Part shown: positions 7,224 to 59,827 of the stretch, piece after piece | How positions within the stretch are numbered: the first letter of the stretch is position 1 | How the letters are laid out: each line of letters begins with the position of its first letter | DNA from: a phage | Sequence record: PZ452610.1 | Length of the DNA: 64,000 nt | Reading direction: 5' to 3' (one strand) | Made by a program: the position numbers and the translations under genes | The notes under the pieces: model-generated | What the model saw: the letters and a program-made list of their open reading frames with translations, nothing else | What the model was told of the DNA's origin: nothing | Database searches by the model: none

Positions 7224-8324
7224 TTACGCTGTGAAGATTTTATCCCACATCGCAACAACTGCATCTCGGTTATACTTCTTCCATACTGCTTCAGCACGTT
7301 TAACTCGAGCTTCGTATGTGTCAGTGAATTCTAATACAGCTTTTGTGTAAAGCGCAACTACTTCTTTCTTAGGAGTAGAGGAATCAATTTCTACACGCAC
7401 AGTATCTGGGTCGTATTCGAATGTCGCATGAGGATAATCCTTAAAAACTAACTGGATTACAGGGACACCTTTAGAGATGGCTTCAATAGAACTATTCTCT
7501 ACCGTACCTGTGTCAGGACACGTATTAATAAGTGCTTTAGCTGTTTTAAGACGTTCCATAATTTCACTGTGTGGAGCATCAATAATAACAGGATATTTAG
7601 CTGGTGGTGCCCATTTACTAGGACAGTATCCTGCACCATTTTCGCCTAGTGCTTTAATCGCTTCAAGAGCAACATCAGTACGACGCATTTTAGTGTCATA
7701 ACGTTGTGCACTAATAATCAGATCAGTCGCCGGAAGAACTTCAGGTTTCTCATTCAAACAAATAACCGGATAATCTTCGGCTTCAAACAACGGATTTGCT
7801 CGCCAATAATCATAATCAATTTTGTCAGTCAGACCTGAAGTCATATAACAATATTTACGTTCAAATTCACGGAAGGCTTTAGTAGGAGCATAACTCTTAC
7901 CACCATTCTTATGAATTTGAATAGTCTGGTCCCAAATTTGAACAATGCCACGAGATACCGGTTCAAACGGTGTTGCCATAAAATTCTTATGAACTTTAGA
8001 GAGACCTGCGTCTTTAATTGCCTGAACGGTTAGTTTAGTCGGTTCCATAGTAACAACGAAATCGTATTCATGGATGCCGGCTAGTTCAACAATCTTACGA
8101 GCCATAGTATAACTCATACCTAGACTGAATTTAGTCAGATGACCAACAGGATGATGATTAACCTTCCAATCACCAAATGTGTCATTATCAAAACCAATAT
8201 AATCAATATCGGCACCGATAGAAACTAAATATTTCAACACATTTAAATGTACTGCTTCAAGACCACCTTGTACACGGTCAGGATTAAATGGGACTGCACG
8301 AGATGGGATAAACATAACTTTCAT
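7224..8324 (-). CDS. putative GT-B fold glycosyltransferase (candidate DNA glycosyltransferase)
   Basis: 366 aa; C-terminal TGTVENSSIEAISKGVPVI resembles the GT4/GT-B donor-binding motif; sits where T4 has gene 60/mobA. Confidence 0.5.
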   Translation of the reverse strand: MKVMFIPSRAVPFNPDRVQGGLEAVHLNVLKYLVSIGADIDYIGFDNDTFGDWKVNHHPVGHLTKFSLGMSYTMARKIVELAGIHEYDFVVTMEPTKLTVQAIKDAGLSKVHKNFMATPFEPVSRGIVQIWDQTIQIHKNGGKSYAPTKAFREFERKYCYMTSGLTDKIDYDYWRANPLFEAEDYPVICLNEKPEVLPATDLIISAQRYDTKMRRTDVALEAIKALGENGAGYCPSKWAPPAKYPVIIDAPHSEIMERLKTAKALINTCPDTGTVENSSIEAISKGVPVIQLVFKDYPHATFEYDPDTVRVEIDSSTPKKEVVALYTKAVLEFTDTYEARVKRAEAVWKKYNRDAVVAMWDKIFTA

Positions 8325-20143: not shown

Positions 20144-20306
20144 TTGCAACCCAATCAACCATATGTAGATGGTCTGATAATTGACTAACATGCTGAAGCT
20201 GATTAGACAGGAGCTTACAAATAAGCTCACTGTTATCATTTTTAAATAGTTGGTCAATACGTTTCTTATGAGCTTTCTTAAGCTGACGTTTATTTAAACG
20301 AGCCAT
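20133..20306 (-). CDS. small basic protein (57 aa)
   Basis: Sub-threshold ORF MARLNKRQLKKAHKKRIDQLF...; TAATG overlap with gene 56 stop. Confidence 0.35.
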   Translation of the reverse strand: MARLNKRQLKKAHKKRIDQLFKNDNSELICKLLSNQLQHVSQLSDHLHMVDWVANET

Positions 20307-20827
20307 TAATAACCTCGGTCTTGACGAGCAAAGTTTTCAGCATTCTTCAGATAATACAGTTTAAAGATTTCTTCAGCAGAAAGACCCAGACCTTGGAACA
20401 TGTTCAGAACGAAGTGCAGAATATCAATCATTTCGAATTTAATTTCGAGCTGGTCTTCGGGAGACAGTTCATCAATACGACGATTACGATATTCAGCATG
20501 TTGTGCTTTCCATGGCTTCCACACAGAGCTGGCAGCTTTTTCACCGTTGGACATACCACCAAGTGAAGTCAGCAGTTCACGGAATTCATCATCAATATAA
20601 TCTTTCTGATTACGCAGCCAATCAACAACATCGCCAGCAGTAGCCAATTCATCAGGATGTTTGTTATGTTCAGGCTTGTCATTTGCCAGACGAACCTGTA
20701 AAGATTTCTGCATATCAAGCATTACCTGCAGTGGGTCTTTATCTTCGTGAATCAGAGCATTAAAATAAGCTTCTTCTGCTTTATCAACACCAGAAATAAG
20801 TTGTGAACATTCGTTAAAGTGTGCCAT
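20306..20827 (-). CDS. 56: dCTP pyrophosphatase (MazG-like)
   Basis: 173 aa from MAHFNE start (AAAGGA RBS); position between soc and primase 61 as in T4. Confidence 0.8.
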   Translation of the reverse strand: MAHFNECSQLISGVDKAEEAYFNALIHEDKDPLQVMLDMQKSLQVRLANDKPEHNKHPDELATAGDVVDWLRNQKDYIDDEFRELLTSLGGMSNGEKAASSVWKPWKAQHAEYRNRRIDELSPEDQLEIKFEMIDILHFVLNMFQGLGLSAEEIFKLYYLKNAENFARQDRGY

Positions 20828-28694: not shown

Positions 28695-29243
28695 TTAACG
28701 AGCCCATTTGATGATTTCTGTAATCAAATCATTACGTTCGCTTGCATTAAATCCTATAACTTTGTTAGCACCATCATGATTAAGTAATTGATACGTTTGG
28801 ATTTTGTTATGAATTGCAAACTCTTCAAAATGTGAAATGACTGTATTAAAACCGAATGAAGACAAAGTGATAAGGTCGTCTTCAAAACTTTCAGTCATTT
28901 CGTTACGTGTTAAAATAATTGTGAACACATCATGGTTTTGGCAAAGACGAACATAATCCTGTTCATAAACGTCAAGAACCGAGTCCGCATCTTGTCGAAT
29001 ACGTCCATAAACCCAGTTACTAATATATCCACGGTCTAACAGATAAATCTTAGTAGGGTCTAAATAATTCAACATCGTTTCGAAACAGCCAACTTCATTT
29101 CGAGACTTAACATCGAAACGTCCATCAACTGTTCGTTTAGGGAAATCAATCTTTACATATCTTTCACTAATTTCCATTATGTCATTAATGAAAGTTGTTT
29201 TACCAGCATTATCCGGGCCATCTACTAAAATAATTTTAGCCAT
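28695..29243 (-). CDS. P-loop nucleotide kinase (thymidylate-kinase-like)
   Basis: 182 aa; Walker A VDGPDNAGKTT typical of Tmk/dNK-type kinases; occupies the T4 beta-gt neighbourhood. Confidence 0.5.
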   Translation of the reverse strand: MAKIILVDGPDNAGKTTFINDIMEISERYVKIDFPKRTVDGRFDVKSRNEVGCFETMLNYLDPTKIYLLDRGYISNWVYGRIRQDADSVLDVYEQDYVRLCQNHDVFTIILTRNEMTESFEDDLITLSSFGFNTVISHFEEFAIHNKIQTYQLLNHDGANKVIGFNASERNDLITEIIKWAR

Positions 29244-29244: not shown

Positions 29245-30144
29245 TTATTCCTCGATTACGACATCTTCATATTTAGGTATATTATACGGTGAAGAAATTA
29301 AAGCATTAAAGTAGATGAACTCACCAAGACCTGGATGAAATACTTCTTCAGGATTTTCGAAATATTGAATCTTCGGACGTCCTTTAAGAATTTGATAGTA
29401 CTCAGTTTTAGTTGGTTTAAAAATTCGAATCAACGCTTCTTCAGGATACTTATTTCTGTCGAAGCTATTATTTGGATCGGTTATATAAAGCGGTTGACCT
29501 AATTGAATTGCGCATTCAACAACTTGTTCAAAACGATAGCATGGGTCACTAATTCGAAATGGATGAAAAATACCATCTAGATGAATAGGAGCCAAATCAC
29601 CTACAAGACGCTGCATGATGGAAGGACGTATAACTTTCTGCGTTACGATAATCTTATTACCATCTGCACCTGCGTTAACCAGCACTTCTTTTTGACGTTC
29701 ATTCAACACAGTAGTTTGAAGTGAACGATTAACCGACAACATATCAGTTTTTAAGAATTCGTCAATATAAAAACGTGGTTTATTAGGGTCTGCAGTGATA
29801 TTGAAATTGAATTCCACATCAAAAGCGCCGTCATATCCAGTGATATCTGTGATTAAAAAATCACAATCATAATAAGCAATTAATGAATCAACAACAAATT
29901 CATTTTCAGACCAGAAATATTTACGAGTGTTATACGCGTTATCTTTATACCATAATGGAACAAACTTAAATTCTGGAAAAAGACGTTCGCATTCTTTAAT
30001 ATCAGATGCATTACGTGGATATGTAATCACATCACCCGGATTAGCACGGTGCAAATGAAGTTGGAAGTTGCCATCCTTAAGGATAGCATACTGTCCAGTT
30101 TCATAAGACCGCATACTCAAGATTGGTACGCGGAAAATAGCCAT
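29245..30144 (-). CDS. hypothetical protein (299 aa); positional replacement of beta-gt, possible GT-A-like DxD motif
   Basis: ORF track; LIAYYDCDFLITD resembles hydrophobic strand + DxD; not similar to T4 beta-gt. Confidence 0.5.
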   Translation of the reverse strand: MAIFRVPILSMRSYETGQYAILKDGNFQLHLHRANPGDVITYPRNASDIKECERLFPEFKFVPLWYKDNAYNTRKYFWSENEFVVDSLIAYYDCDFLITDITGYDGAFDVEFNFNITADPNKPRFYIDEFLKTDMLSVNRSLQTTVLNERQKEVLVNAGADGNKIIVTQKVIRPSIMQRLVGDLAPIHLDGIFHPFRISDPCYRFEQVVECAIQLGQPLYITDPNNSFDRNKYPEEALIRIFKPTKTEYYQILKGRPKIQYFENPEEVFHPGLGEFIYFNALISSPYNIPKYEDVVIEE

Positions 30145-30860
30145 TAGTCAAGGAATCCTTTAACATAATCAAAATCACGTTCAAACACATGGGCACTTAC
30201 CATGGTATGAGTATAATCACCAACTTCTACCCCACATTCGTTAGCGATATAATGAAGTAATTTTCCTTGGAGATAAAAATCCAACTGCATAACAACAGCA
30301 CAGTTCTGAGAACGCATATGACAGTGGGTATAAAGCTTACCATCACGAATATAATAAGTCACTGAGTCAGTACATGGATATTCAAGCGTTTCGTCCGAAT
30401 CAAGCAAAGCCTGATCAGAACTTTCTAGAATTTGGAACACAACTCTTCGAGAGTTAGGCTTCTCTTTAAGTTCTTTTAGAAGAGCTGGTAATTGGGCCGC
30501 AATGCGAGGACCATAGAAAGTGTTGAAGTTCGCCGGCAAAACATCTGATTTTGGTTTAGAAATAAATTTAGCGACATTAGGATATGCCTTAAACGCTTCT
30601 TCTGCGTTGGTACCACCAGAAATCATAAACTTCCAGAAGTCTTCGGCATATTCATAAGAGATGCGGTTAATACGTGGGTCGGTCATTTTGAATGATGATG
30701 GAGTGTCAACAACTACTGTCATAGACCCAATTTCATTACAACGTCCAATACGAGAATCAGTTACGAATTCCGGGTTTTCTAAAATTTCACGATTGACTGC
30801 TTTAAATGCGGTTTGAAAATCTGCGGCTTTGATATATTTCATTGTGTTATGTTTTCCCAT
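30144..30860 (-). CDS. 42: dCMP hydroxymethylase (thymidylate synthase family)
   Basis: 238 aa; catalytic Cys in EYPCTDS; T4 position. Confidence 0.85.
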   Translation of the reverse strand: MGKHNTMKYIKAADFQTAFKAVNREILENPEFVTDSRIGRCNEIGSMTVVVDTPSSFKMTDPRINRISYEYAEDFWKFMISGGTNAEEAFKAYPNVAKFISKPKSDVLPANFNTFYGPRIAAQLPALLKELKEKPNSRRVVFQILESSDQALLDSDETLEYPCTDSVTYYIRDGKLYTHCHMRSQNCAVVMQLDFYLQGKLLHYIANECGVEVGDYTHTMVSAHVFERDFDYVKGFLD

Positions 30861-30879: not shown

Positions 30880-30903
30880 ATTATATACTCAATTCGTAAA
30901 GCT
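30880..30903 (-). promoter_or_regulatory. MotA-box-like middle promoter upstream of gene 42
   Basis: Minus strand AGCTTTA, 11 bp, TATAAT. Confidence 0.35.
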
Positions 30904-31142
30904 TATTTGAATTTCTTGACAATGTTGATATAACGTAAAGCTTCAGCATCGATACTTCCAAGAACACTATGAAGAAATGCATCAGCGTAGTATTCCAATT
31001 GAACAGGTTCTTTAATCACTTTAGCCGCTTTAGTTTCAAACAGGCCCATCAGGGCCTTTTTAAGAATTTGTTCGTTGCTGTTAATTTTCATAGTCAAAAT
31101 CTCTTCATTAAGTTGGTGGTTAAAAGTTTTTCTAGAAATCAT
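30903..31142 (-). CDS. hypothetical protein (79 aa)
   Basis: ORF track; ATGA-coupled to upstream 386-aa ORF. Confidence 0.45.
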   Translation of the reverse strand: MISRKTFNHQLNEEILTMKINSNEQILKKALMGLFETKAAKVIKEPVQLEYYADAFLHSVLGSIDAEALRYINIVKKFK

Positions 31143-32299
31143 TCCGGGTACCTCAAAGCGTCATCAGAGTTAGTTATATCAATAATAGATATAGAGTTTT
31201 CTGCTAACCCGTTTTTAGATAATTGACGTTTATAATATCTTTCACAATATGTACACGTCGTCCCGCAGATTTCATTAGCACAATCGAAATCTGGATGTCT
31301 GAACCACCTTTTTTCTAAAAAGCCATCTAACAAAGAGGTTTCAATATTTACTGTATGTGAAAACTCAGTTTCGTTTTCAAGAGTGAAAATAGTCTCTAAA
31401 GGCTTCCACAGTTCTAACAAATTACCTTCAAACTTTTCAGAAGCGTATGCTTCAAGAACTTTCAAAATGTAGTCTGTGCTACCTGTACGTCCTGAAACTT
31501 TGAATTGAGTGATACCAATATCATTATAAAGTTTCAAATCTTGAGGACGAACAAAACGAGTTCTCAACCAGTTAAATGGGTCTGTATCACGAGCTTTAAT
31601 ACAGTGCTGCATAGGATATCCGTTTAAGGATTTAGCATCATCAGCTGTAACATCAGTACTATGGAAAATATAGCAAGAGTCACGATAGCTACAATGTGTT
31701 GTATACCCTTTACCAGCATTAGAACAGAACTCATTTACAAGAACTTCAAATATTATATTGTTCTTATTGCAAAACTCTGCTGCACGCTTCAGGAAAGAAA
31801 CTGAACGGTTCTTATGAATTCCACAGCAGACCTTTTTGATATTATACTGGTCATGCAAGTATTTGATTTGAGTTACAGCATCGACATGTAGAATTGTTGA
31901 AACTTCAATCTCAATGTCTTTATTGACTTCACGAACAATTTCCATAACAACAGGGTTAGCGATAGTAATACGCCATACGCCTATTGACCAAAGATACTGA
32001 ACATAATCCTGAATAGCTTTCTTCTTCCACCCAACTAGTTCTCTTTTTGAACCAGGATTTATCGTGTTGAGTGTATAGTTAAAGCAAATACCTAATTCGT
32101 TACAACGTTTAACGTAATCTTCTAACATCTTTTTGTCAACGTCAGGAAGCCTAAAATCAGGTCTGGCTGCTACAAAAGCCATTTCTCTTGTAGAGCCGTA
32201 TACTTCGTTTATCAAGCTATTAGGATAAGTTTTATTGAGCTCTACGATTTTATCAAGAAGAGCTAAATCAAAATTCGTTCCAATTTTAAAAGTATTCAT
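31139..32299 (-). CDS. hypothetical protein (386 aa) with C-terminal Cys cluster, part of sugar cassette
   Basis: Track start is GTG; first in-frame ATG at 32297-32299; C-terminal CANEICGTTCTYC plus internal EFCSNAGKGYTTHCSYRDSC. Confidence 0.55.
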   Translation of the reverse strand: MNTFKIGTNFDLALLDKIVELNKTYPNSLINEVYGSTREMAFVAARPDFRLPDVDKKMLEDYVKRCNELGICFNYTLNTINPGSKRELVGWKKKAIQDYVQYLWSIGVWRITIANPVVMEIVREVNKDIEIEVSTILHVDAVTQIKYLHDQYNIKKVCCGIHKNRSVSFLKRAAEFCNKNNIIFEVLVNEFCSNAGKGYTTHCSYRDSCYIFHSTDVTADDAKSLNGYPMQHCIKARDTDPFNWLRTRFVRPQDLKLYNDIGITQFKVSGRTGSTDYILKVLEAYASEKFEGNLLELWKPLETIFTLENETEFSHTVNIETSLLDGFLEKRWFRHPDFDCANEICGTTCTYCERYYKRQLSKNGLAENSISIIDITNSDDALRYPE

Positions 32300-32355: not shown

Positions 32356-32742
32356 TTATAGATTCGGTTTATATGATTTAAATGTTTCGAATTCGCCTTT
32401 ATTCATAAGAGCTTTGAATTCGTCAGGACGCATAGCTTTGTCGTCGATAATCCAATCATATACTGGTTTATGTGTTAGCAAATTATGGTACTTCAAACCA
32501 ATGTTTTCCAAGTTCTGAATCAGACTTGGGAGAATGTCAATTGCTATACGACCAGGACCTACTGACTTCATACCGCGAGCAGTGTAAAGCGTTATGGTAT
32601 GCCCTGCATCATACAGGGCATTAATAGCAGTCACCATTTCGACGTCTGGTTTGAAGTTCACGTAATCACGATTGTTATTCCACTCTGTTATACAATCATC
32701 GACATCAAAACAAAGATTAAGCATGTTTTCTACACGGTGCAT
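32356..32742 (-). CDS. HAD-superfamily phosphatase (small)
   Basis: FDVDDCITEW is HAD motif I (DxD); TAATG overlap with upstream gene stop. Confidence 0.55.
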   Translation of the reverse strand: MHRVENMLNLCFDVDDCITEWNNNRDYVNFKPDVEMVTAINALYDAGHTITLYTARGMKSVGPGRIAIDILPSLIQNLENIGLKYHNLLTHKPVYDWIIDDKAMRPDEFKALMNKGEFETFKSYKPNL

Positions 32743-34427
32743 TAGATTCGTTCCCATTGATGAGTGATATCGCCACCGATTGGACGATAAGAAACACCAG
32801 TTTCTTTATCAGTTAGTACCCATTTACCAGGATTTTTTGTAATCAGAGTAGCCGTTACAGGTTCTGCTACGTCATAACTAATAGAGCCGTCCTGAAGTAC
32901 ACGGCCCATGTTACGTAATTGCTTAGTCAGAAGTTCCATACCTTTATAATATGCGGCTACCGCTTTAAGTGGATTATTCTTGAAATAACCACCTAATGCA
33001 ATCCAGATAATTGCTACAGCCAAATGATGATACTCGTTAAACGAACTCATCTTTCCATATTTGTAAACTAATGGATTGATGTTAATAGTCACATTACAAG
33101 TTGTTTCGTCAATAGTAAACTGTCCCCAGGTCGGATTAGCGTTGAATTCATCATAACCTGAAACAGCATAAAGCACTTTAGCTTCATCATACAATTTTGG
33201 CCCGTAAATCTTGGTTTCGCCAAAATATCCACGAGGGTCGATAAACTTGACTTCGCCGTTATCAGTAATCATAGTATTACTGAAGTTCGGGTCACCGTGA
33301 ATAACAGAGTACTGTCCCTGAGAACGGGTATGATAACGAATAAGATGTTCTAAAGCTTGCTTCAGCATTGGCTTCAGACGTCCAATCTTAGTGTAGTTCA
33401 CGTGTGTGATTTTACCAAATGAATCAATCAATGGCTGAATGCTTTCACAACGATCAATAACTTTCGTATAGAACTCTTTAGTGAAATCACGGCGAACAGT
33501 TTCAGGACTTACAAAATAAGTGTCTGTGCTGAATTTCAGTGCATCTAAAATTGCATCAACAATTTGTGGACGAGCAAGACTTGATTTGGATTTAATATAT
33601 TCAAATGCTGGCTTACCTTTAATACGTTCCATTTCAAAATTATTTTCATTTACCGAAACTAACTGAGGAACTGAATCTGATTTCACTTTCAAATACCATG
33701 AAATCTCATCTTTTTGAAGAGCTCGACCTTGTTCGGTTAACGCGAATTTAGTTACAGTTTCTTCGCCAATTTCAACTGCATTAAAACTACGATTAAGTTC
33801 ACGAACTTCATGAGCTTTTTCAAGTTTAGGCATATCACCTAAATCAATTAGATTCATAAGCTCTGATTTATTGAATGCACTGCCGTAAAGGAATTCTACG
33901 AAATCACGTCCTTTGCAGTATTCATGAATTTCCTCATCAGTAGAACCCATGTAGAATTCCCAGTCTTTGAACTGATAAATTCCTACAACATTACCGCCTG
34001 TTGAACCTACGTTAGTGATATTTTCACCATCGAAATTATATCGACATTCATCACCCTTAACATAGATTGCGTTAACATTCCAAGACCATGAACCAAAATC
34101 AGGAATAATATCACACCAGTTAACAATTACGTTATGGCCATCTAAATCTTTGTATAATTTAGCAAGAGCATAAGCAGAACCATACGCTTCATCAACTGTA
34201 CGAATAGTCACATTGAACCCTTCTTGCTCGCAATAAGCTCGAACAGTTTCAGCAAATTTTGAATGAACTACTACAATAATTTCATCTGCGCCAAGGTCAG
34301 AATAAATTGTATACAAATTGCTCAGAATAGTGTCTTGTTTATAGTTAACAAGAACTTTTGGAATATGATGCGTTATTGGATACAAACGAGTTGCCAGTCC
34401 AGCACCAAGAATAACAGCTTTTTTCAT
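32742..34427 (-). CDS. bifunctional sugar-1-phosphate nucleotidylyltransferase / APH-like sugar kinase
   Basis: 561 aa; N-terminal VILGAGLATRLYPITHHIPKVLV (RmlA/GalU/MurU-type NTase); C-terminal HGDPNFSNTMI...KFIDPRG (APH/choline-kinase-like catalytic loop). Confidence 0.7.
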   Translation of the reverse strand: MKKAVILGAGLATRLYPITHHIPKVLVNYKQDTILSNLYTIYSDLGADEIIVVVHSKFAETVRAYCEQEGFNVTIRTVDEAYGSAYALAKLYKDLDGHNVIVNWCDIIPDFGSWSWNVNAIYVKGDECRYNFDGENITNVGSTGGNVVGIYQFKDWEFYMGSTDEEIHEYCKGRDFVEFLYGSAFNKSELMNLIDLGDMPKLEKAHEVRELNRSFNAVEIGEETVTKFALTEQGRALQKDEISWYLKVKSDSVPQLVSVNENNFEMERIKGKPAFEYIKSKSSLARPQIVDAILDALKFSTDTYFVSPETVRRDFTKEFYTKVIDRCESIQPLIDSFGKITHVNYTKIGRLKPMLKQALEHLIRYHTRSQGQYSVIHGDPNFSNTMITDNGEVKFIDPRGYFGETKIYGPKLYDEAKVLYAVSGYDEFNANPTWGQFTIDETTCNVTININPLVYKYGKMSSFNEYHHLAVAIIWIALGGYFKNNPLKAVAAYYKGMELLTKQLRNMGRVLQDGSISYDVAEPVTATLITKNPGKWVLTDKETGVSYRPIGGDITHQWERI

Positions 34428-34468
34428 GTTGTGGTCCTCATTGGTAAGTAGGTGTATTGTACACTATT

Positions 34469-34612
34469 CTAGTTAAAGCATTCATACTTTGCTTGTAGTC
34501 CAATCATAATCCATCCAATTACAAGTGTTGGAATCATTACTGGAGCCGTTAAGCTCCAGTAGATAGTCATGACAAGCATCAATAGTAAAAGTCCTATTGT
34601 TATTGCTTTCAT
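34469..34612 (-). CDS. small membrane protein (47 aa)
   Basis: Sub-threshold ORF MKAITIGLLLLMLVMTIYWSL...; ATGA overlap with SIS gene stop. Confidence 0.35.
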   Translation of the reverse strand: MKAITIGLLLLMLVMTIYWSLTAPVMIPTLVIGWIMIGLQAKYECFN

Positions 34613-35244
34613 TGTTCGCCTCGTAACATGGCACCTAGTGCACCGCCTGGATGGAACTTAAGAAAGTCATTAGAGGTAAATCCACGTTCAGACGAAAGGT
34701 TGATAGCAAACGTATCGATAAGCGCTAACAACAATGTAGTGGACATAGTCGGAGCCAGAGAATTCTCATCAACCTCTACCGCGATGCCTGTACAGAAAGA
34801 GTAATCAAAAAGGGCTTCATTTTCTTGCGGAATGTCTGGGTTACAATGCAACAGAATCTGTTTGACATTTGGACGAATCATTTTAAGATGCTTAGCCACG
34901 CCTATCATTTCTTCAGTCTTACCAGAACGACTAATATGAATCAACACATCATTAGGCGCAATGAATCCTGCATCACCGTGAGAATAATGCCCAGTGTTCA
35001 AGTACATACTCGGGATACCGAGTGAAGCAAATGTCTCAGAAGCTTTAGTTGCAATATTAGCATTCTTACCAACACCTGTAATAATTACTCGGCTTTCATA
35101 ATTACTAAGTCCAGGGCGTCGAAGAGTTTCTAGAATAGCATTATAACGAGCAGGGTTTTGACTAATTACTTTGGCCATAGCGGCCAAAGAAGAAGCTTGT
35201 TTTATGATTGCGTCAATAGCGATAGTAATAGGAGTAGTTTTCAT
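34609..35244 (-). CDS. SIS-domain sugar-phosphate isomerase (KdsD/GutQ-like arabinose-5-phosphate isomerase, no CBS domains)
   Basis: 211 aa; GVGKNANIATK...HGDAGFI...LIHISRSGKTEE...FHPGGALG parallels the KdsD SIS domain. Confidence 0.7.
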   Translation of the reverse strand: MKTTPITIAIDAIIKQASSLAAMAKVISQNPARYNAILETLRRPGLSNYESRVIITGVGKNANIATKASETFASLGIPSMYLNTGHYSHGDAGFIAPNDVLIHISRSGKTEEMIGVAKHLKMIRPNVKQILLHCNPDIPQENEALFDYSFCTGIAVEVDENSLAPTMSTTLLLALIDTFAINLSSERGFTSNDFLKFHPGGALGAMLRGEQ

Positions 35245-43386: not shown

Positions 43387-43621
43387 CCTCGATACATGCT
43401 TCAGCCATTTTAAGAATAGAGCCAGGAGTATCGTTGTCCATTATATTAAAGCTAAATTCAATAGCCCAGTCGGTACAGACATGAACGGCTTTAACTTCAT
43501 TGCCTTCAACGCGTAATGGCTCAATCCAATACTTGATAGTGTTCTCGAATCCATCATCATCTTTAACGTCTATTTCAACTTCAAGCCCAAGCCCGGCATT
43601 GTTAAATTCATCTAAAGTCAT
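43364..43621 (-). CDS. hypothetical protein (85 aa)
   Basis: ORF track; 46.2 position. Confidence 0.5.
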   Translation of the reverse strand: MTLDEFNNAGLGLEVEIDVKDDDGFENTIKYWIEPLRVEGNEVKAVHVCTDWAIEFSFNIMDNDTPGSILKMAEACIEDAYNDED

Positions 43622-44637
43622 TGTGTTGCCTCAATATAAAGTTCGTTAGAATATTTGACCAGCGCTTCTCTGTCTTCGTCTGAGATATCTGGAATCGCGT
43701 CAATATATTCTTTAATGATATCTTGAAGTGATTTAATCTCGATTTCCTGGTCGTCATCAGATTCAACACTGTTATCAACTTTAGAAACCATACGAAGAGA
43801 GTGAACTACTTTTTCAAGTTCAGATTCAAACTTAGTCAACTCTGAATCAATTTCTGATACTATAACACGTACGGCTAGATTAGTATAATCAGAATAATTG
43901 ATTTTGCCTTTAAACGGATAAGTGATTCTTCGATGCCATGTTGTTTCATTAGGAATAAATTCCATACGTTCAACATCAGTGTCAAATACCCAGAATCCAC
44001 GCGGGTCGTTCTCATCACCTGCAGTAAGGGTCCACGGTGTTCCAATATATTTGACGTTAGCAGCTTCAGAGATTGTGTGGAAGTGGCCTGACCAGACTTG
44101 TTTATAAGTCTTTAAGAAATCAGGTTCAAGCCCATGAGACTTCATCCCTTTATAGAAATAAAAGCCGTTCAGTTCCCAGTGCCCAACACAATACGCAGCA
44201 GAAGAAGTCTTGATGTGCTCTAAGATTTCACCTGTATTTTCTTCACACATCCATGGAACGATATCAATCAGACATCCGTCAAAATCTACAGTAGTCGGAT
44301 GCTCATAAATAGTAAAGTTTTCAAATTGAGTTAACAATTCAGAAACAGTGTTAGGTGTTATTGTATTCTTAAACGCCATGTCATGGTTTCCTATCGTGAC
44401 ATGAACGTGAATGCCTGCTTTAGAAATCATATCAACGATTTCACGATTGAATTCCATTGTACGATGTGTTATTGCTTTACGGACGTCAAACCAATCACCG
44501 TACTGAATCCAAGTTTTAATCCCGTGTTTCTTAGAGTATTCAATTGCTTGTCGAATACCATCACGTTGAATATCTTGAACCCATGGGTCGTCTTGTTTGA
44601 CTCCGATATGGAAGTCGCCTAAGTGCAAAATTTTCAT
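43618..44637 (-). CDS. 47: recombination endonuclease subunit (SbcD/Mre11-like phosphoesterase)
   Basis: 339 aa; MKILHLGDFHIG and GNHD phosphoesterase motifs; same length as T4 gp47. Confidence 0.9.
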   Translation of the reverse strand: MKILHLGDFHIGVKQDDPWVQDIQRDGIRQAIEYSKKHGIKTWIQYGDWFDVRKAITHRTMEFNREIVDMISKAGIHVHVTIGNHDMAFKNTITPNTVSELLTQFENFTIYEHPTTVDFDGCLIDIVPWMCEENTGEILEHIKTSSAAYCVGHWELNGFYFYKGMKSHGLEPDFLKTYKQVWSGHFHTISEAANVKYIGTPWTLTAGDENDPRGFWVFDTDVERMEFIPNETTWHRRITYPFKGKINYSDYTNLAVRVIVSEIDSELTKFESELEKVVHSLRMVSKVDNSVESDDDQEIEIKSLQDIIKEYIDAIPDISDEDREALVKYSNELYIEATQ

Positions 44638-44682
44638 ATTATTTCCTCATTAGTTAATTCATTTTATCATCCGTTTATAAAG

Positions 44683-44708
44683 CAAAAAAGGAACTCCGAA
44701 GAGTTCCT
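44683..44708 (-). terminator. intrinsic terminator upstream of gene 47
   Basis: Minus strand AGGAACUC-UUCG-GAGUUCCU followed by 6 U. Confidence 0.65.
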
Positions 44709-44880
44709 ATCCACATAGTACACCGTACAGAGGCTCATTTGAACTTTTAAATCGAATTGGCTTGTACGTAATAGTTCCTTCGGCTTTAGCTTTATCATAA
44801 GACTCTTTAAAACGTCTCATTCTTTCTGCTTTGCCTTTACGGATTTTATCGAAATTTTCAGAAGTCGGGATGTTCGTCAT
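44707..44880 (-). CDS. small basic protein (57 aa)
   Basis: Sub-threshold ORF MTNIPTSENFDKIRKGKAERMRRF...; GAGGTG RBS; stop overlaps terminator hairpin. Confidence 0.35.
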   Translation of the reverse strand: MTNIPTSENFDKIRKGKAERMRRFKESYDKAKAEGTITYKPIRFKSSNEPLYGVLCG

Positions 44881-44919
44881 GCATAAGCACCTCTCAGAAA
44901 ATGCCTAAATCAATTTCTC

Positions 44920-45141
44920 TCATCGTTTCCACCATTTCTTAACTTGAAATGAATCGGCCCACACGAGTTGTTTTGGGTCTGCCTTTACAATAGGCGGACA
45001 AATTTCTGTAATAGAACCGTCGTGATATTCCTTTTCAGAAATTTTAACACAAAGAGGACCTCCCAATTTAAGGGTGAACCCTGCGTTCAGCTTCAGACGT
45101 TTAAACTTTGTTTGAACTAGCGCCATTAATGATGTCCTCAA
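44920..45141 (-). CDS. hypothetical protein (73 aa)
   Basis: ORF track. Confidence 0.45.
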   Translation of the reverse strand: MRTSLMALVQTKFKRLKLNAGFTLKLGGPLCVKISEKEYHDGSITEICPPIVKADPKQLVWADSFQVKKWWKR

Positions 45142-45424
45142 TAGCCTGACGAGTAGTAACCCACTGGATTTTAATTAACTTGTCATTGTATGGTTGTCGT
45201 AGAATATCCCGAGATTTCTTAATAGCATATTCGTAAGCTTCGAAGTTGTTTTGAATTGCTGCTTCTTGAGCATGAGCATAAAGACGGTTTAGTTCAAAAC
45301 GATTCTTTTTAAGAATCTTTTCGGATTTTTTACGTGCTTCAGCTTCATTTTTCTTTTGGATTTCTTGTAGCATTTTAGCTACTGCATCTTCTGCTTCTTT
45401 ATTTTCAATAATCTCGGTAGTCAT
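45101..45424 (-). CDS. hypothetical protein (107 aa)
   Basis: ORF track. Confidence 0.5.
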   Translation of the reverse strand: MTTEIIENKEAEDAVAKMLQEIQKKNEAEARKKSEKILKKNRFELNRLYAHAQEAAIQNNFEAYEYAIKKSRDILRQPYNDKLIKIQWVTTRQAIEDIINGASSNKV

Positions 45425-45425
45425 A

Positions 45426-45641
45426 TTATCTCATTAAATTAAAATAAAAACGTCCATCCTCTTCAATACAGAACTCATACTCAACTGGAGTCCCATTTAT
45501 CGAAAATGACACGTCATGTGGGTTCAAAGGGTCGATGTCAAAATTAATTTTAAATTCACGACCCAACAGTTTTACCAAATAAGGGATTGCTTCGTCAAAA
45601 GGTTCTTCTAAGTAGTTAGAGATGTCAATTGTCATCCTCAT
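45426..45641 (-). CDS. hypothetical protein (about 71 aa), start uncertain
   Basis: ORF track trimmed; track N-terminus overlaps gene 55 coding in another frame. Confidence 0.35.
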
Positions 45642-46182
45642 ATAAAAAATCCAAACTAGGCGAATCGCTAACAACTTCCTTCTTTTCAGCCCCAGGAGCT
45701 TTATAAGCGGATTCTTCATAATGCGTCATTTTATCGTAGATGTCTTGAATAAACGTTTCATCTACTAACGCTACCATATCATCGTCATGACTGTCGTAGA
45801 CATTATGAACGAAGTAACTATATTTCTTTGCAACTTCCTTACGTTCTTTTTTGATACGTTGGACAAAAGCATTAAAACAAGCTCGAGTTATGTATGCATG
45901 TGGGTTATTGTACTTAGTTTCGTCGAAATTATGAAGTCCCTTAATAGAGGCTTCAATCCCATCTGCAATCATCTCCTGCTTCCAAGACTGGGTATATCCT
46001 GAAAAGTTGAAACGTTTGGACAGGCCTTCGGCGATAAGCATAATTGCTAAACCGATGGTATCATTCTGACGAATAATTTTGTTTGGGTCTTTATTATTTA
46101 AGAGCTCCTTTTTCCACTCGATTATAGCGGCGAGAAGCTCTTTATTATTCACATAGTTATTTTTAGGTTTTTGTTCAGTCAT
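45625..46182 (-). CDS. 55: late-transcription sigma factor gp55
   Basis: 185 aa from ATG at 46180-46182; near-identical to T4 gp55 ([11 protein letters not shown]...[52 protein letters not shown]). Confidence 0.9.
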
Positions 46183-54336: not shown

Positions 54337-54641
54337 TATAATGTTCTCTCAAATTTGTGGAAGCATTTACGGCATTTCAATTTCAAGTTATCACTGGTCC
54401 AGTTAACCAGTTGGACTTGGATAGTTCCACATTCCGGACATGGATGTTTTGCTGCCGATTTGGCAGCATTTTCACGTCGTTCAACCATTTTCATGATTTC
54501 GTTCCATGCTGGAGGAACGAACTCTTCTTCACCGTGGATTTTATCTCGCTGAACAAATTCAATCTTTGAACTATCGTCAATAAACTTAACCAAGCGGTGA
54601 TTAGTGTTCATATCAATATCCTCTAAAAGACGTAGTTTCAT
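54336..54641 (-). CDS. zinc-finger protein (101 aa)
   Basis: CPECG...CRKC motif pair. Confidence 0.5.
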   Translation of the reverse strand: MKLRLLEDIDMNTNHRLVKFIDDSSKIEFVQRDKIHGEEEFVPPAWNEIMKMVERRENAAKSAAKHPCPECGTIQVQLVNWTSDNLKLKCRKCFHKFERTL

Positions 54642-55585
54642 TATAACACCTCAATGGCATTTCGTAAACCATCCGCTTTCGCATTCAGAGCTTTTAACGA
54701 TTTAGTCTGTTCTTTAATCTGGGCTTCGACTTCTTTCAGACGAGATTTGAGATATTCGCGTTCTTCGGCCATGATATCGACCTTTTCTGCTTTAGGTTCT
54801 TTAATAGGCTTAAACACATTAGGGTTCTTCAGTTTAATTTTAATTCGAGAACTGAATAACATTGAACCGTTATCTTCGGTTTCGTCGAACATTTCAACAA
54901 CATCCATAGTCTGTAACATCATGCGAAGTTTATAAGACAGAGAACGAATGGTTTTGTTGCGCTTATTAATTTCTTCGGCTTTCATGGTACCGAGATTACG
55001 TGAGTAATAATAAGGAACCTGGATATCAATTGATAACGATGCGTTACCATTACCAGTTGGTTTGAATACTGCAGTAACCCAATCTTTAACATGAACTTTA
55101 TTTGTACGACCATCGCCGCCTGTGAATAATTTACGTGAATGTTTAAAAAGCATATTCACTTGGTTATTGAATTCACAAGCAAATTTATCAGCAAATTTAG
55201 TTTCAGGAATGGTGGAGAACCAATCAGCTAAATGAGTCTTTTTAACATCATTAACAATAGTGAATTCAACCAAATCGGTTTTAGATGTCACAGATTTAAT
55301 AAAGCTCGGTTTCATAAAGTTTTTAATGTTATCACGAGCCACAGTAGAAGATAATAAACGAGAACGTTTGAACCATTGAAGCAACGTCCCTAATGAATGA
55401 GAATATGCATTTTGAGTATCTTTACAGATATGATTTTCTTGGCCTGTGTATGTACCAAAATCGCGAAGAATACCACTTACTACATCTCGGTGTGGAACAT
55501 CAAATCCTAATGAACCAGAAGCACGTTGGGCATGAACGTTAGCGATAAGACCTGCAAAGTATTCAATGTAATGTGAACGTGTCAT
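54641..55585 (-). CDS. hypothetical protein (314 aa) with C-terminal coiled-coil-like tail
   Basis: ORF track; preceded by conserved promoter cassette. Confidence 0.55.
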   Translation of the reverse strand: MTRSHYIEYFAGLIANVHAQRASGSLGFDVPHRDVVSGILRDFGTYTGQENHICKDTQNAYSHSLGTLLQWFKRSRLLSSTVARDNIKNFMKPSFIKSVTSKTDLVEFTIVNDVKKTHLADWFSTIPETKFADKFACEFNNQVNMLFKHSRKLFTGGDGRTNKVHVKDWVTAVFKPTGNGNASLSIDIQVPYYYSRNLGTMKAEEINKRNKTIRSLSYKLRMMLQTMDVVEMFDETEDNGSMLFSSRIKIKLKNPNVFKPIKEPKAEKVDIMAEEREYLKSRLKEVEAQIKEQTKSLKALNAKADGLRNAIEVL

Positions 55586-55613
55586 AATATTTTCCTCTCG
55601 TTAAGATAGATTC

Positions 55614-55643
55614 ATTATACTCCAACCATCCTTGGTTGTAAAC
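55614..55643 (-). promoter_or_regulatory. early-type promoter (repeated cassette copy)
   Basis: Minus strand GTTTAC-aaccaaggatggttggag-TATAAT, identical core to 13604-13633. Confidence 0.5.
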
Positions 55644-55647
55644 TATT

Positions 55648-56607
55648 TTATGATTTTAACGCATTCATTGCGTTAAAAAGTTTAGAATACTGCAACTGGA
55701 GATTCGTTACAACACTTTGAGCATCACGAAGCTTAGCTTGTGCTTTGTCAAGTTCAACAGACAGTTGGTCCATAGTGGCCTTGATTTGATTGTAATGGTA
55801 ATCTTCGGCCGGAAGAAGGTCATTAGAAACATTTAGTTTTACTGCAGACAGTTTGCACACATTTGGCAAACCTTTAAACATTGATTTACCCGAAGTAGAA
55901 TAAGCACTTAGGACTTCGGCCTGTTCAATTGGGGTCCCAGTAAGCGATGCTTCAAACAATGCATTTTCCTTTTTAAGATTTTGATAATATTCGGAGTCTT
56001 TGTGCCACCATGGCGCAGGAACCTTTTTACCAATAGATACACGAGCCTGGATAGCGATATGGCCCTTATTCTTGATAAGGTCGATAATATTAAGCTCACG
56101 AGAATAAATCGCTTTAATCTGGTGGATATTATCACCTAAAACTTCCAACGCTTGGTGGAATACACGAGCGACATTATCATTCTTAGGTTTATACGTAAGA
56201 GTGAACTCATTCTCACTGATAACCATGATTTCCAACTTATCGTAAGTATATTTCAAATGTTTCATGTTAATTGCTTGAGGACGAATACGAGAAGCAATGG
56301 CCATCAGATTGTTAAGGTTATTCCGGAACTGCTTAGCGAAATATTGTCCTTCACCGCCAATACAAAAATTACGAAGTTTCTGTTTGGCCAATAAACGGCT
56401 GAACTCACCATTTTTAATGAACTCTTTAACGGGTGTGTTAGTAACGCATTCAAATTGAGTAAACTTACGAGAAGTAATCCCATAATATGAACAGATTTCC
56501 TCAATCTCTTCAGGAGTCTTTACAGGCATACGGATAGGATTAGGTCCTGGAGTATATGCGTTCGAGGTAAATTCTTTGATAAGTTCTCTACGTGTAATAA
56601 AAGCCAT
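55648..56607 (-). CDS. hypothetical protein (319 aa) with C-terminal coiled-coil-like tail
   Basis: ORF track; preceded by conserved promoter cassette. Confidence 0.55.
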   Translation of the reverse strand: MAFITRRELIKEFTSNAYTPGPNPIRMPVKTPEEIEEICSYYGITSRKFTQFECVTNTPVKEFIKNGEFSRLLAKQKLRNFCIGGEGQYFAKQFRNNLNNLMAIASRIRPQAINMKHLKYTYDKLEIMVISENEFTLTYKPKNDNVARVFHQALEVLGDNIHQIKAIYSRELNIIDLIKNKGHIAIQARVSIGKKVPAPWWHKDSEYYQNLKKENALFEASLTGTPIEQAEVLSAYSTSGKSMFKGLPNVCKLSAVKLNVSNDLLPAEDYHYNQIKATMDQLSVELDKAQAKLRDAQSVVTNLQLQYSKLFNAMNALKS

Positions 56608-56633
56608 TTTATATTCCTCATGTTGAAAAATTT

Positions 56634-56662
56634 ATTATACTCCAACCATCCTTGGTTGTACA
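56634..56662 (-). promoter_or_regulatory. early-type promoter (repeated cassette copy)
   Basis: Minus strand TGTACAACCAAGGATGGTTGGAGTATAAT. Confidence 0.5.
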
Positions 56663-57658
56663 TCATTCCTTAAGAAGTTTTACTACCTGAATAAGATTAG
56701 CTCGTTCTGTTTTATTTTTACCGTTTAAGCCTGCTAATCGTGAGATTTCATCGTCAGTCTGTTGAATAGTTACATTAAGTTCGTTAATCAAAGCTTCAAA
56801 GTATTTGATTTGCTCAGCATGTTTTGATTCAAATTTCTGAACCGGAATAACGTCTTGGTTCAGTTCATCAATAAGGTCTTTAAGAGCATCTTCTTGGTTG
56901 ATATCATATTCAACTTCTTTTATTTCTTCAACGAGCTCGTCTTTATATCTAACGTCTTTTAGTCCTGGAGCTGGTCCTGAAATCTCTTCTTTAAGAGTAC
57001 AAACATACCCAATACGGTATCCAACGCCGTCTCGCTTGATATCAACTTCGTCGATAAATCCACAATGTTTAAGTCCAGAGCCGATTATGTCAAAATATCC
57101 TTGACGTCGTCCTTCAAACGTTACACGAACTACTAAGACGGTTTTGCCACCGACCTTTTGAAGCTCACATTTATAAAAGTTTGTTGAACCTGAATAACAT
57201 GGATGAGTTTTAAAGTTCATCTGACGATCTAGGCCCATTTGTAAACGTGCTGTTACGGCCATAAAACGTGTTTGGTTCTCGTTAAGATGAGCAACAATCC
57301 ATTTCAAAGGCATTTTACCCTGTTCACGGCCGAACAAATCAGTACGTCCTAGATTACGCAGGATGTTGTTAGAGTTAATCATCGACAGAACGTTAAGTTT
57401 ATTCAGCGCGCTGAAGATTCCATCAGCCATTGATTTTCCATAACCTTTACACGCTTTAATAAGTGCTCGCGGCAGATTAGTATAGATTTCAGACGGCATA
57501 TGAAAATCAAATTTACTAGTCAGTAATTGATGAACTTGGATAGCAATTTGCTCATAATTAAGTGCTCTGCGATCGTTATGGTCTTTAAACCATACTTTAA
57601 TCTGTGAAGCACATAAACCGTTAATTTCATGTTTTACCGCATCAGATGTAATGCTCAT
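56663..57658 (-). CDS. hypothetical protein (331 aa) with C-terminal coiled-coil-like tail
   Basis: ORF track; preceded by a degenerate copy of the promoter cassette. Confidence 0.55.
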   Translation of the reverse strand: MSITSDAVKHEINGLCASQIKVWFKDHNDRRALNYEQIAIQVHQLLTSKFDFHMPSEIYTNLPRALIKACKGYGKSMADGIFSALNKLNVLSMINSNNILRNLGRTDLFGREQGKMPLKWIVAHLNENQTRFMAVTARLQMGLDRQMNFKTHPCYSGSTNFYKCELQKVGGKTVLVVRVTFEGRRQGYFDIIGSGLKHCGFIDEVDIKRDGVGYRIGYVCTLKEEISGPAPGLKDVRYKDELVEEIKEVEYDINQEDALKDLIDELNQDVIPVQKFESKHAEQIKYFEALINELNVTIQQTDDEISRLAGLNGKNKTERANLIQVVKLLKE

Positions 57659-57693
57659 AACTATTTCCTCGGATTGAATTGGAACTCAAAACC

Positions 57694-57717
57694 ATTATAA
57701 CCCGTCCTTGGGTAAAG
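57694..57717 (-). promoter_or_regulatory. degenerate copy of promoter cassette (spacer 12 bp)
   Basis: Minus strand CTTTAC-cccaaggacggg-TTATAAT; about 6 bp shorter than functional-looking copies. Confidence 0.25.
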
Positions 57718-57720
57718 CGT

Positions 57721-58248
57721 TTATGCGTGAACCGACTTTAAACGTTCTTCAAATTTCCGAAGAGTACTAATACGTTCTGCTTTCTGTTTTGTATAGTTTG
57801 CAATACGTTCTGAAGTGAGAGCGTATCGTTCGTTTACTGTTTCTTTCATGAAGTCAGGGATTTCACGAGAAGCTTTAATTTCATCAAACTTATCGAGTAC
57901 TGCCTGGTCTTCAGCAATTAAATTTTCGTACATCTCGATATCTTTCTTGATGAAGTCGATATCTTCCTGGGTTACTTTGGATAAACGAGATGCTTTATCC
58001 TTTTTGTACTGCTCGTTAGTTTCACGAGACCAGAATAATGTACGTTTTTTGTTAGTGTTTTTGTAGACTTCCACAATTCCAACTGAATCGATGATAACAA
58101 TCCAATTCCAGCGAGATTTGAAAATCTGACCTCCGTCCACGGTAATCTCGTTACCATAAGCAATGTCATTAAAGAACTTACTTTGTGCTTCGGATTTAAA
58201 TTTACCGTCGTTATAATTTACCAGGTTGAAAATATCTTTAGCGTTCAT
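57721..58248 (-). CDS. hypothetical protein (175 aa) with C-terminal coiled-coil-like half
   Basis: ORF track; GAGGT RBS; early promoter at 58276-58304. Confidence 0.55.
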   Translation of the reverse strand: MNAKDIFNLVNYNDGKFKSEAQSKFFNDIAYGNEITVDGGQIFKSRWNWIVIIDSVGIVEVYKNTNKKRTLFWSRETNEQYKKDKASRLSKVTQEDIDFIKKDIEMYENLIAEDQAVLDKFDEIKASREIPDFMKETVNERYALTSERIANYTKQKAERISTLRKFEERLKSVHA

Positions 58249-58275
58249 GTTTTACCTCCAGTAGTTGATAGGTCT

Positions 58276-58304
58276 ATAATAACATAACCATAGACCTTGT
58301 AAAC
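58276..58304 (-). promoter_or_regulatory. early-type promoter with stem-loop (repeated cassette)
   Basis: Minus strand GTTTAC, 17 bp, TATTAT; GGTCTAT/ATAGACC stem; copy of 25125-25174. Confidence 0.5.
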
Positions 58305-58306
58305 AA

Positions 58307-58594
58307 CTAAAAGAAACTTTTTTCGGTATTTTTTCCACTGAACCAAACAGACTTCGGGATTTTTTGTAATTTTTCAGATTTAAGTTTCTCTTCCTGTTCT
58401 TTCTTATATACACCCTTGTCGTACTGGAGCATCTCTATGACATTCTTTTGCAAACGATCTAAGGTAATTAAGGCTTTAGTTTTTCCTTTCAAGGAAGAGT
58501 CCTGGCGAACCTCCTCGCTATATTGCATTGTAGAACTAACCATACGATGAGCATAGAGTTCGACTGCGGCTTTAATTTTTTGCATAAAATCCAT
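58307..58594 (-). CDS. hypothetical protein (95 aa)
   Basis: ORF track; AGAGGA RBS. Confidence 0.45.
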   Translation of the reverse strand: MDFMQKIKAAVELYAHRMVSSTMQYSEEVRQDSSLKGKTKALITLDRLQKNVIEMLQYDKGVYKKEQEEKLKSEKLQKIPKSVWFSGKNTEKSFF

Positions 58595-58732
58595 AACATA
58601 TCCTCTTTGATTTGTACATCATTATTTTTAAATATTTCTATGCCCTCAGTAGGTTCCTGGTGTCCTTCTTTGAGGTAAGCCATATGATTATTCATCTTTA
58701 TGGCTTTTGTTACCTCAGAACTTCCTATAAGC

Positions 58733-59734: not shown

Positions 59735-59751
59735 TTCGTTTCGATAGGTCT

Positions 59752-59780
59752 ATAGTATCATATCCTAAAAGCATGTACAC
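59752..59780 (-). promoter_or_regulatory. early-type promoter upstream of P-loop ATPase gene
   Basis: Minus strand GTGTAC, 17 bp, TACTAT. Confidence 0.45.
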
Positions 59781-59807
59781 TACTTTTTAAAAATATTTTA
59801 ACCCCCT

Positions 59808-59827
59808 AAAGGGACCCGAAGGTCCCC
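59808..59827 (-). terminator. UUCG-tetraloop hairpin after secreted-protein gene
   Basis: Minus strand GGGACC-UUCG-GGUCCC then UUUAGGGGG. Confidence 0.45.

Follow-up and report, generated by a model that had tools for sequence, protein, structure and literature searches.

The α-glucosyltransferase slot between genes 47 and 55 is empty in an RB69-like Mosigvirus with a predicted arabinosyl-5-hydroxycytosine pathway

Phage T4 carries its α-glucosyltransferase gene (a-gt) between genes 47 and 55. In a 64,000-nucleotide stretch of the phage sequence record PZ452610.1 (hereafter, the window), this interval holds no a-gt, and there is no homolog of a-gt or of the β-glucosyltransferase gene (b-gt) anywhere in the genome. 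Very probably, the phage places arabinose on 5-hydroxycytosine instead, and it would have no need of α- or β-glucosyltransferase because its DNA contains no hydroxymethylcytosine to serve as their substrate. The window is the reverse complement of positions 92185–156184 of NC_041863.1, with one mismatch. NC_041863.1 is E. coli O157 typing phage 3, an RB69-like Mosigvirus with a genome of 168,733 bp, and searches of the rest of the genome were run on this complete sequence. A 4.2-kb query around the 47–55 interval matched typing phages 3, 6 and 13 at 100% and approximately 140 other Mosigvirus genomes at 95–99%. The source of the window is an RB69-like Mosigvirus of the E. coli O157 typing phage 3/6/13 group. 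Publications since 2018 have repeatedly described both the lack of a-gt and b-gt and their replacement by arabinosylation, and the main finding restates a contrast between T4 and RB69-type phages that is by now textbook knowledge.

The best tblastn match to T4 a-gt had an E-value of 2.6 in the window and 1.4 across the complete genome; for T4 b-gt, the corresponding values were 1.6 and 3.1. The same method detects both genes in other phages, in 657 records for a-gt and 126 for b-gt and down to 26% identity, and the negative result for this genome is therefore meaningful. Searches of the window and the complete genome with T4 47.1, mobB and segA found nothing. The β-α-glucosyltransferase of T2 and T6 was not among the queries, and its absence from RB69 rests on Thomas 2018 (PMC6024577), in which RB69 was reported to lack homologs of a-gt, b-gt and β-α-gt alike. 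The lack of T4 glucosyltransferases in RB69 was noted again by Lee 2026 (PMC13326640). An earlier note on this DNA, made from the sequence alone, had correctly placed the T4 gene between 47 and 55, had found it missing here along with b-gt, and had argued that the canonical T4 glucosylation system was absent and replaced. Both halves of that argument hold, and the check that it proposed, a tblastn search of the complete genome with both enzymes, uncovered no homolog elsewhere.

The spacing between genes 47 and 55 is 987 nt, compared with 3152 nt in T4, where the gene order is 47, 47.1, a-gt, mobB, a-gt.2, a-gt.3, a-gt.4, a-gt.5 and 55. Relative to T4, the interval is without 47.1, a-gt and the homing endonuclease gene mobB, and nothing else is missing. 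It contains a terminator and the orthologs of a-gt.2 to a-gt.5 (Table 1). The earlier note had described a terminator and four open reading frames (ORFs) of 57–107 residues; the count and the terminator stand, but the ORFs are conserved T4 genes and one of them needed shortening. A mechanical ORF list gave lengths of 57, 73, 107 and 97 residues. The a-gt.3 ortholog has 68 residues when read from its ATG and 73 with an upstream TTG start. The 97-residue version of the a-gt.5 ORF was rejected as over-extended, as it reached 95 nt into gene 55, and the conserved start gives 71 residues with a 17-nt overlap with the end of gene 55 that is identical in T4.

Since the four ORFs are orthologs of T4 genes, they are not what replaced a-gt. 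Their profile matches are to domains of unknown function (DUFs; three of the four genes) and to PHROGs of unknown function, none of which indicates a role, and a literature search on the function of a-gt.2 to a-gt.5 returned a single comparative paper from 2006 that mentions a-gt.4. The interval itself is ordinary, consisting of four conserved small genes and one unit of terminator and putative middle promoter that would feed gene 47. An identical layout is annotated in the GenBank genome of RB69 and in mar005P1, and the uninterrupted junction between gene 47 and a-gt.2 was found in 143 phage records, with 96–100% identity in the seven Mosigvirus matches listed. The empty slot is therefore a trait of the lineage and not an artefact.

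The window carries a full RB69-type arabinosylation module. Most of it lies at 28.7–35.2 kb, in the stretch from uvsX to gene 43 that b-gt, 42, imm and imm.1 occupy in T4, and a second part lies at 7.2–8.3 kb. The proteins of the module are 97.5–100% identical to RB69 gp3 and gp45–gp55 and include the features that characterize the RB69 system: a 5-hydroxy-dCMP synthase homolog, three UDP-arabinose supply genes and two GT-B transferases. The synthase homolog is nearly identical to the proteins in PDB entries 9iqc, 9ir2 and 9iqu (E = 8e-161) and only 25% identical to T4 gp42, whereas replication proteins share 62–91% identity with their T4 counterparts. In the alignment, its TLEYPC motif puts a glutamate at −3 from the catalytic cysteine (the L143 position), and its QLD motif aligns with PFN of thymidylate synthase, with the aspartate at N177. 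The base chemistry is very probably swapped as well as the sugar, with 5-hydroxycytosine taking the place of hydroxymethylcytosine.

A GT-B fold was recognized in the 299-residue protein that sits in the b-gt slot, and structure comparison revealed no specific relation to T4 a-gt or b-gt. The protein is a non-orthologous replacement, not a diverged b-gt. The second transferase is nearly identical to PDB entries 9iqz and 9ir0, labelled “phage HY126 glycosyltransferase” (E = 8e-250). The 561-residue protein matches Pfam NTP_transferase at its N-terminus and has weak kinase matches at its C-terminus. In the RB69 reference, the corresponding two genes are each broken in two (ORF046c/047c and ORF052c/053c), whereas here they are uninterrupted ORFs of 299 and 561 residues, in agreement with the published attribution of the splits to sequencing errors. 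As for imm and imm.1, which in T4 sit between 42 and 43, they are found at 23870–24539 on the minus strand near sp and dmd, some 6–10 kb away, and genes of the arabinose pathway occupy their T4 position.

The pathway predicted from these genes would start with the flavin-dependent thymidylate-synthase homolog at the gene 42 position, which would convert dCMP to 5-hydroxy-dCMP. Kinases would raise this product to the triphosphate while the gene 56 dCTPase clears dCTP, and the polymerase would therefore build DNA that contains 5-hydroxycytosine. In parallel, the arabinose-5-phosphate isomerase, the bifunctional kinase/pyrophosphorylase and the HAD phosphatase would together produce UDP-arabinofuranose. 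The two GT-B transferases, one adjoining the synthase and the other between rIIA and gene 39, would then add one or two arabinoses to the 5-hydroxyl.

Our own observations are that a-gt and b-gt are absent, that the small ORFs are orthologs of T4 genes, that the module proteins are nearly identical to those of RB69 and, in part, to solved HY126 structures, and that the 299-residue protein has a GT-B fold. For the chemistry, we rely on published work on RB69, HY126 and other Mosigviruses. Arabinose was found in RB69 DNA by Thomas 2018 (PMC6024577). According to Lee 2026 (PMC13326640), the modified base in RB69 is 5-hydroxycytosine, 5-hydroxy-dCMP is made by gp48 with O2 and flavin, and the DNA contains mono- and di-arabinosyl-5-hydroxycytosine; the RB69 pathway proteins were either experimentally characterized or assigned in that study. 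In another Mosigvirus, phage NP, 5-ara-dC and 5-ara-ara-dC have been demonstrated chemically in the DNA. Structures from phage HY126 (Afh genes) have reportedly been solved, and UDP-arabinose synthesis reconstituted, in work by He in 2026, and a 2025 article by Mahler in Cell Host Microbe is said to be among the published work on the arabinosyl-5-hydroxycytosine system of Mosigviruses.

The gene order uvsX, kinase, transferase, ThyA-like synthase, gp49, U32 protein, phosphatase, kinase/pyrophosphorylase, isomerase and gene 43 is the same as in RB69. In both phages, the second transferase gene adjoins rIIA, and the 47–55 interval is also identical. Apart from the splits in the reference (46/47 and 52/53), nothing substantive differs between the two phages. 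The likeness to T4 is one of design. In both systems, a ThyA-family enzyme acts on C5 of dCMP, the gene 56 dCTPase excludes dCTP, and UDP-sugar-using GT-B transferases decorate the base on the DNA, and the uvsX–gene 43 neighborhood and a-gt.2 to a-gt.5 are shared. However, the base carries a 5-hydroxymethyl group in T4 and a 5-hydroxyl in Mosigvirus, where the synthase depends on flavin and O2. T4 draws on host UDP-glucose, whereas the arabinofuranose of Mosigvirus is supplied by phage enzymes. Among the components of the T4-type system, the gene 56 dCTPase is present, whereas a-gt, b-gt and a gp42-type dCMP hydroxymethylase were not found, the sole gp42 homolog being of the 5-hydroxy-dCMP synthase type. 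Unlike T4, Mosigvirus has no member of the a-gt or b-gt families, nothing in the a-gt slot, and neither 47.1 nor mobB.

These differences matter because DNA with arabinosyl-5-hydroxycytosine resists or triggers other restriction, CRISPR and type IV defences than DNA with glucosylated hydroxymethylcytosine, with consequences for phage therapy, phage typing and phage engineering.

The spacer between a-gt.2 and gene 47 is 69 nt long and is fully explained by a terminator, a MotA-like site and a GAGGA ribosome-binding sequence. The RNA fold of the terminator has an energy of −13.9 kcal/mol (z = −3.63), and none of 200 shuffled sequences was as stable. In the window as a whole, there are 11 matches to the MotA-box pattern TGCTTTA-N10-13-TANNNT, where 1.26 would be expected. 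The transcribed strand has five of them, three of which fall within or border the arabinosylation cluster.

By alignment, a unit made of a hairpin, GCTTTATA and a TAnAAT −10 sequence precedes gene 47 in the window and in RB69, 47.1 in SP18, T2 and T4, and a-gt in T2. There are two copies of the unit in T2 and T4, one on either side of a-gt, and one copy in Mosigvirus, which lacks the cassette. The position of the copies marks a-gt as a single-gene cassette, and recombination between the two copies could lead to its clean insertion or removal. In Gaprivervirus SP18, one copy of the unit is present and 47.1 and 47 follow directly after a-gt.2; there is no a-gt at this site. The small membrane-protein gene 47.1 is also absent from Mosigvirus (window 44635–44660, minus strand, compared with SP18). 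The difference between Mosigvirus and SP18 spans precisely the sequence from the start codon of 47.1 to that of gene 47, and the ribosome-binding site of 47.1 therefore now serves gene 47. The arrangement resembles the PeSL elements of Arbiol, Comeau, Krisch and colleagues from 2010, promoter/stem-loop cassettes by which, as was reportedly suggested, gene modules are shuffled among T4-type phages. As in PeSLs, a stem-loop and promoter unit is repeated around an optional gene (a-gt in T2 and T4) and is single where the gene is absent. However, the unit fits the consensus of MotA-type middle promoters, unlike PeSLs, which fit the early-promoter consensus.

Several points weigh against this account of the phage. 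Arabinosyl-5-hydroxycytosine is assigned to it through protein identity to RB69, and even in RB69, the transferase that adds the first arabinose is a proposal. Moreover, single DLP3 transferases showed no activity on 5-hydroxycytosine DNA (Lee 2026, PMC13326640). At the junction, the promoter at 44661–44684 is putative and recognized by its match to the consensus. Homologs of a-gt with approximately 66% identity are also found in Klebsiella phages, and the a-gt indel may be either a gain in Tequatrovirus or a loss elsewhere. A diverged α- or β-glucosyltransferase might also have persisted elsewhere in the genome, in which case glucosylation would be kept and the gene merely relocated. This is very improbable and already largely refuted, as the tblastn searches gave no E-value below 1 over 168.7 kb, neither module transferase matches the Pfam AGT or T4 β-glucosyltransferase families at E-values up to 0.01, and a structure ranking puts 32 unrelated GT4-type enzymes above T4 a-gt, with b-gt outside the top 60. 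In addition, the 366-residue transferase is nearly identical to the solved HY126 enzyme, and virion DNA of RB69 and NP bears arabinose, not glucose. Still less credible is that a-gt is missing through an error of assembly or annotation, or through a deletion private to this isolate. Sequencing errors did split two module genes in the RB69 reference, but the uninterrupted junction recurs in 143 independent records and is common to RB69, mar005P1 and typing phages 3, 6 and 13, and the 69-nt spacer is made up of the entire unit of terminator, putative promoter and ribosome-binding site and contains no gene remnant.

A different question is how the locus came to be empty. The ancestor may have glucosylated its DNA, and the Mosigvirus lineage may have lost the 47.1/a-gt cassette by recombination between the terminator/promoter repeats that flank it, after a switch to arabinosylation. 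Such a loss is possible, if somewhat doubtful. The two regulatory units that border the cassette in T2 and T4 would allow a precise excision, a-gt.2 to a-gt.5 were kept on one side, and Mosigvirus is without 47.1, which SP18 kept, from start codon to start codon. On the other hand, the repeats are equally suited to insertion, the spacer retains no trace of a-gt, and Gaprivervirus SP18 also lacks a-gt at the site. Relatives in Gaprivervirus and Dhakavirus, VR5 and JS98, have 5-hydroxy-dCMP synthase homologs with approximately 80% identity. By parsimony, the empty site could be the ancestral state, with a-gt inserted in the Tequatrovirus line. This concerns only the history of the locus, and the reading of the present phage as one that arabinosylates 5-hydroxycytosine does not depend on it.

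Table 1. Features of the 47–55 interval, the arabinosylation module and related loci (window coordinates unless stated otherwise).
Feature	Coordinates	Strand	Evidence and remarks
Second DNA arabinosyltransferase (putative), GT4-like, 366 residues, between rIIA and gene 39	7224..8324	-	99.7% identity to RB69 gp3/ORF003c
Gene 56, dCTPase	20306..20827	-	70% identity to T4 gp56, full length; 99.4% to RB69 gp28
Thymidylate-kinase-like nucleotide kinase	28695..29243	-	99.5% identity to RB69 gp45; role per Lee 2026 Table 1 (PMC13326640)
Putative first DNA arabinosyltransferase, 299 residues, GT-B fold, T4 b-gt position	29245..30144	-	100% identity to RB69 gp46, 98.9% to gp47
ThyA-family 5-hydroxy-dCMP synthase (predicted), gene 42 position	30144..30860	-	99.2% identity to RB69 gp48
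79-residue ORF	30903..31142	-	97.5% identity to RB69 gp49; PHROG 8601; no Pfam match
Peptidase-U32 family protein	31139..32299	-	99.0% identity to RB69 gp50
HAD-type sugar phosphatase (HY126 AfhF analog)	32356..32742	-	97.7% identity to RB69 gp51; NCBIfam capsule biosynthesis phosphatase, 51 bits; role per Lee 2026
Bifunctional sugar kinase/UDP-arabinose pyrophosphorylase (HY126 AfhE analog), 561 residues	32742..34427	-	99.4% identity to RB69 gp52, 100% to gp53
Arabinose-5-phosphate isomerase, KpsF/GutQ-like SIS domain	34609..35244	-	100% identity to RB69 gp55; NCBIfam KpsF/GutQ 113 bits, KdsD 108 bits
Gene 47, SbcD-like recombination nuclease subunit, lower flank	43618..44637	-	339 residues; 75.8% identity to T4 gp47, full length; Pfam Metallophos
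Shine-Dalgarno GAGGA	44644..44648	-	6 nt upstream of gene 47 ATG; sequence reading
Putative MotA-type middle promoter	44661..44684	-	TGCTTTA (44684-44678), 11 nt, TAAAAT (44666-44661); consensus match
Intrinsic terminator directly after a-gt.2	44689..44708	-	8-bp stem AGGAACTC / GAGTTCCT, UUCG loop, T-run; terminator scan
a-gt.2 ortholog, 57 residues	44707..44880	-	76% identity to T4 a-gt.2; Pfam DUF5486, 97 bits; PHROG 2140
a-gt.3 ortholog, 68 residues	44920..45126	-	69% identity to T4 a-gt.3; PHROG 1648; RefSeq CDS at same coordinates
a-gt.4 ortholog, 107 residues	45101..45424	-	58% identity to T4 a-gt.4; Pfam DUF2654, 97 bits
a-gt.5 ortholog, 71 residues	45426..45641	-	47% identity to T4 a-gt.5; Pfam DUF5491
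Gene 55, late sigma factor, upper flank	45625..46182	-	90.7% identity to T4 gp55
MotA-box matches on the transcribed strand (n = 5)	10207-10231, 29281-29305, 33150-33175, 34456-34480, 44661-44684	-	
Hairpin + GCTTTATA + TAnAAT unit	window 44638-44708; L008:1245-1330, 2487-2596; L003:22566-22650; L009 (SP18):2209-2450	- (window)	
Loci given for U32/DAHP synthase co-occurrence	window 31139-32299; NC_041863.1 16211-17203 (outside window); L014:8992-10502	- (window)	

The module also contains a peptidase-U32 family protein (31139–32299) that corresponds to RB69 gp50, which Lee 2026 (PMC13326640) labelled a “sugar or heterocycle reductase” without discussion. Together with a 3-deoxy-D-arabino-heptulosonate 7-phosphate (DAHP) synthase of the phage, it might provide a second, oxygen-independent and prephenate-dependent route to 5-hydroxycytosine. 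This idea is tentative, and we give it a little less than an even chance. The U32 protein would be a candidate iron-sulfur, prephenate-dependent hydroxylase like RlhA, TrhP and UbiU/V, and would make 5-hydroxy-(d)C when the flavin- and O2-dependent ThyA-like synthase fails, for example in the anoxic gut. The DAHP synthase, plus a chorismate mutase adjacent to the U32 gene in related genera, would raise the supply of prephenate. Such dual O2-dependent and O2-independent routes would parallel TrhO/TrhP and UbiIHF/UbiUV.

The known members of the family provide the precedent. RlhA accounts for 5-hydroxycytidine (ho5C2501) in E. coli 23S rRNA and needs both iron-sulfur assembly and prephenate (PMC5727448). 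TrhP is annotated as the prephenate-dependent tRNA uridine(34) hydroxylase, the product being ho5U34 (Sakai 2019, PMC6599085), and UbiU/UbiV are annotated as enzymes of anaerobic ubiquinone synthesis that use prephenate as their source of oxygen (PMC10990095). As with RlhA, the product of the pathway that surrounds the phage protein is a 5-hydroxypyrimidine, and the gene is linked genomically to prephenate supply. Unlike RlhA, TrhP and UbiUV, which act on RNA or quinones, its substrate would be a deoxynucleotide or DNA.

The phage protein has the Peptidase_U32 domain and fold. The genome also codes for a DAHP synthase of class I-alpha (428 bits to NCBIfam aroFGH, for which the cutoff is 173), and this enzyme opens the shikimate-to-prephenate route. 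The U32 protein occurs in 222 phage records, always with at least 80% identity, and the hosts belong to Enterobacterales and Shewanella. The DAHP synthase, found in 213 phage records, has nearly the same taxon profile, with record-level overlap over several genera. In Serratia phage X20, an ORF that matches Pfam CM_2, a prephenate-making chorismate mutase, lies directly downstream of the U32 gene, and a chorismate mutase at or adjoining the U32 gene was annotated by the depositors of LC53, Virsaitis27, KLB31, Entb_45 and PWKp16 (Serratia, Erwinia, Enterobacter and Klebsiella being among the hosts).

More distant U32 homologs (50–58% identity) occur in metagenomic phage-like contigs unrelated to Straboviridae (L016, L017/L018, L019, L020 and L021). 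Their neighbors include DNA polymerase III alpha, uracil-DNA glycosylase, dCMP deaminase, deoxynucleoside kinase, the 5'-nucleotidase NT5C, nucleoside deoxyribosyltransferase, a TAGT-like DNA glycosyltransferase and UDP-galactopyranose mutase, and no ThyA homolog was found within 7 kb of them. In one contig (L020), the neighbors include a class I-beta DAHP synthase, an enzyme of the same activity that was recruited independently. Ten cysteines (158, 177, 192, 203, 209, 233, 340, 345, 349 and 352) do not vary among 39 homologs, and those of a C-terminal CX4CX3CX2C motif are among them. The MAFFT alignment with RlhA, TrhP, UbiU and UbiV was too poor for mapping their iron-sulfur ligands onto these cysteines. 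The U32 protein had no match among PDB sequences, and DUF3656, described as unique to RlhA (PMC5727448), was not detected in it by Pfam.

Three observations speak against the prephenate route. Pairwise BLASTP of the U32 protein with RlhA and TrhP gave no significant match, and the proteins are too distant for the active site to be mapped. The cluster of E. coli phage JS98 lacks the U32 gene. In the present phage, the position at which relatives have the chorismate mutase is taken by a 79-residue ORF (RB69 gp49). This ORF was considered as a chorismate mutase and rejected, as it has no similarity to the X20 enzyme and no Pfam match, and a search of NC_041863.1 gave no convincing chorismate mutase elsewhere (best E = 0.011, on the non-coding strand). 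Host range was looked at as well. Acinetobacter is a strict aerobe, and its phages have the O2-dependent synthase in 65 records and the U32 protein in none; the inspected cluster of one of them, phage Konradin, is without U32. However, a strict correlation of U32 with host anaerobiosis was rejected as holding only partly, since the E. coli Dhakavirus JS98 lacks U32 just as Acinetobacter phages do.

Full-text literature searches, the scope of which did not include He 2026 and Mahler 2025, returned nothing relevant on a link between phage U32 proteins, prephenate and hydroxycytosine, and the idea may already be contained in either of those two papers. If the U32 protein does prove to be an anaerobic hydroxylase, the DAHP synthase of Mosigvirus would be explained, and DNA precursors would join RNA and quinones as targets of prephenate-dependent hydroxylation. 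It would also show gut phages keeping their DNA hypermodified without oxygen.

Elsewhere in the window, 54641–61589 (minus strand) is a run of poorly characterized genes for proteins of 314–333 residues, among them a DUF7235 protein and one with weak AAA/STAND-NTPase and helix-turn-helix matches. The same region includes an RlaP-like nucleotidyltransferase, followed by a 157-residue ORF that has no Pfam match and is called “membrane protein” in RefSeq.

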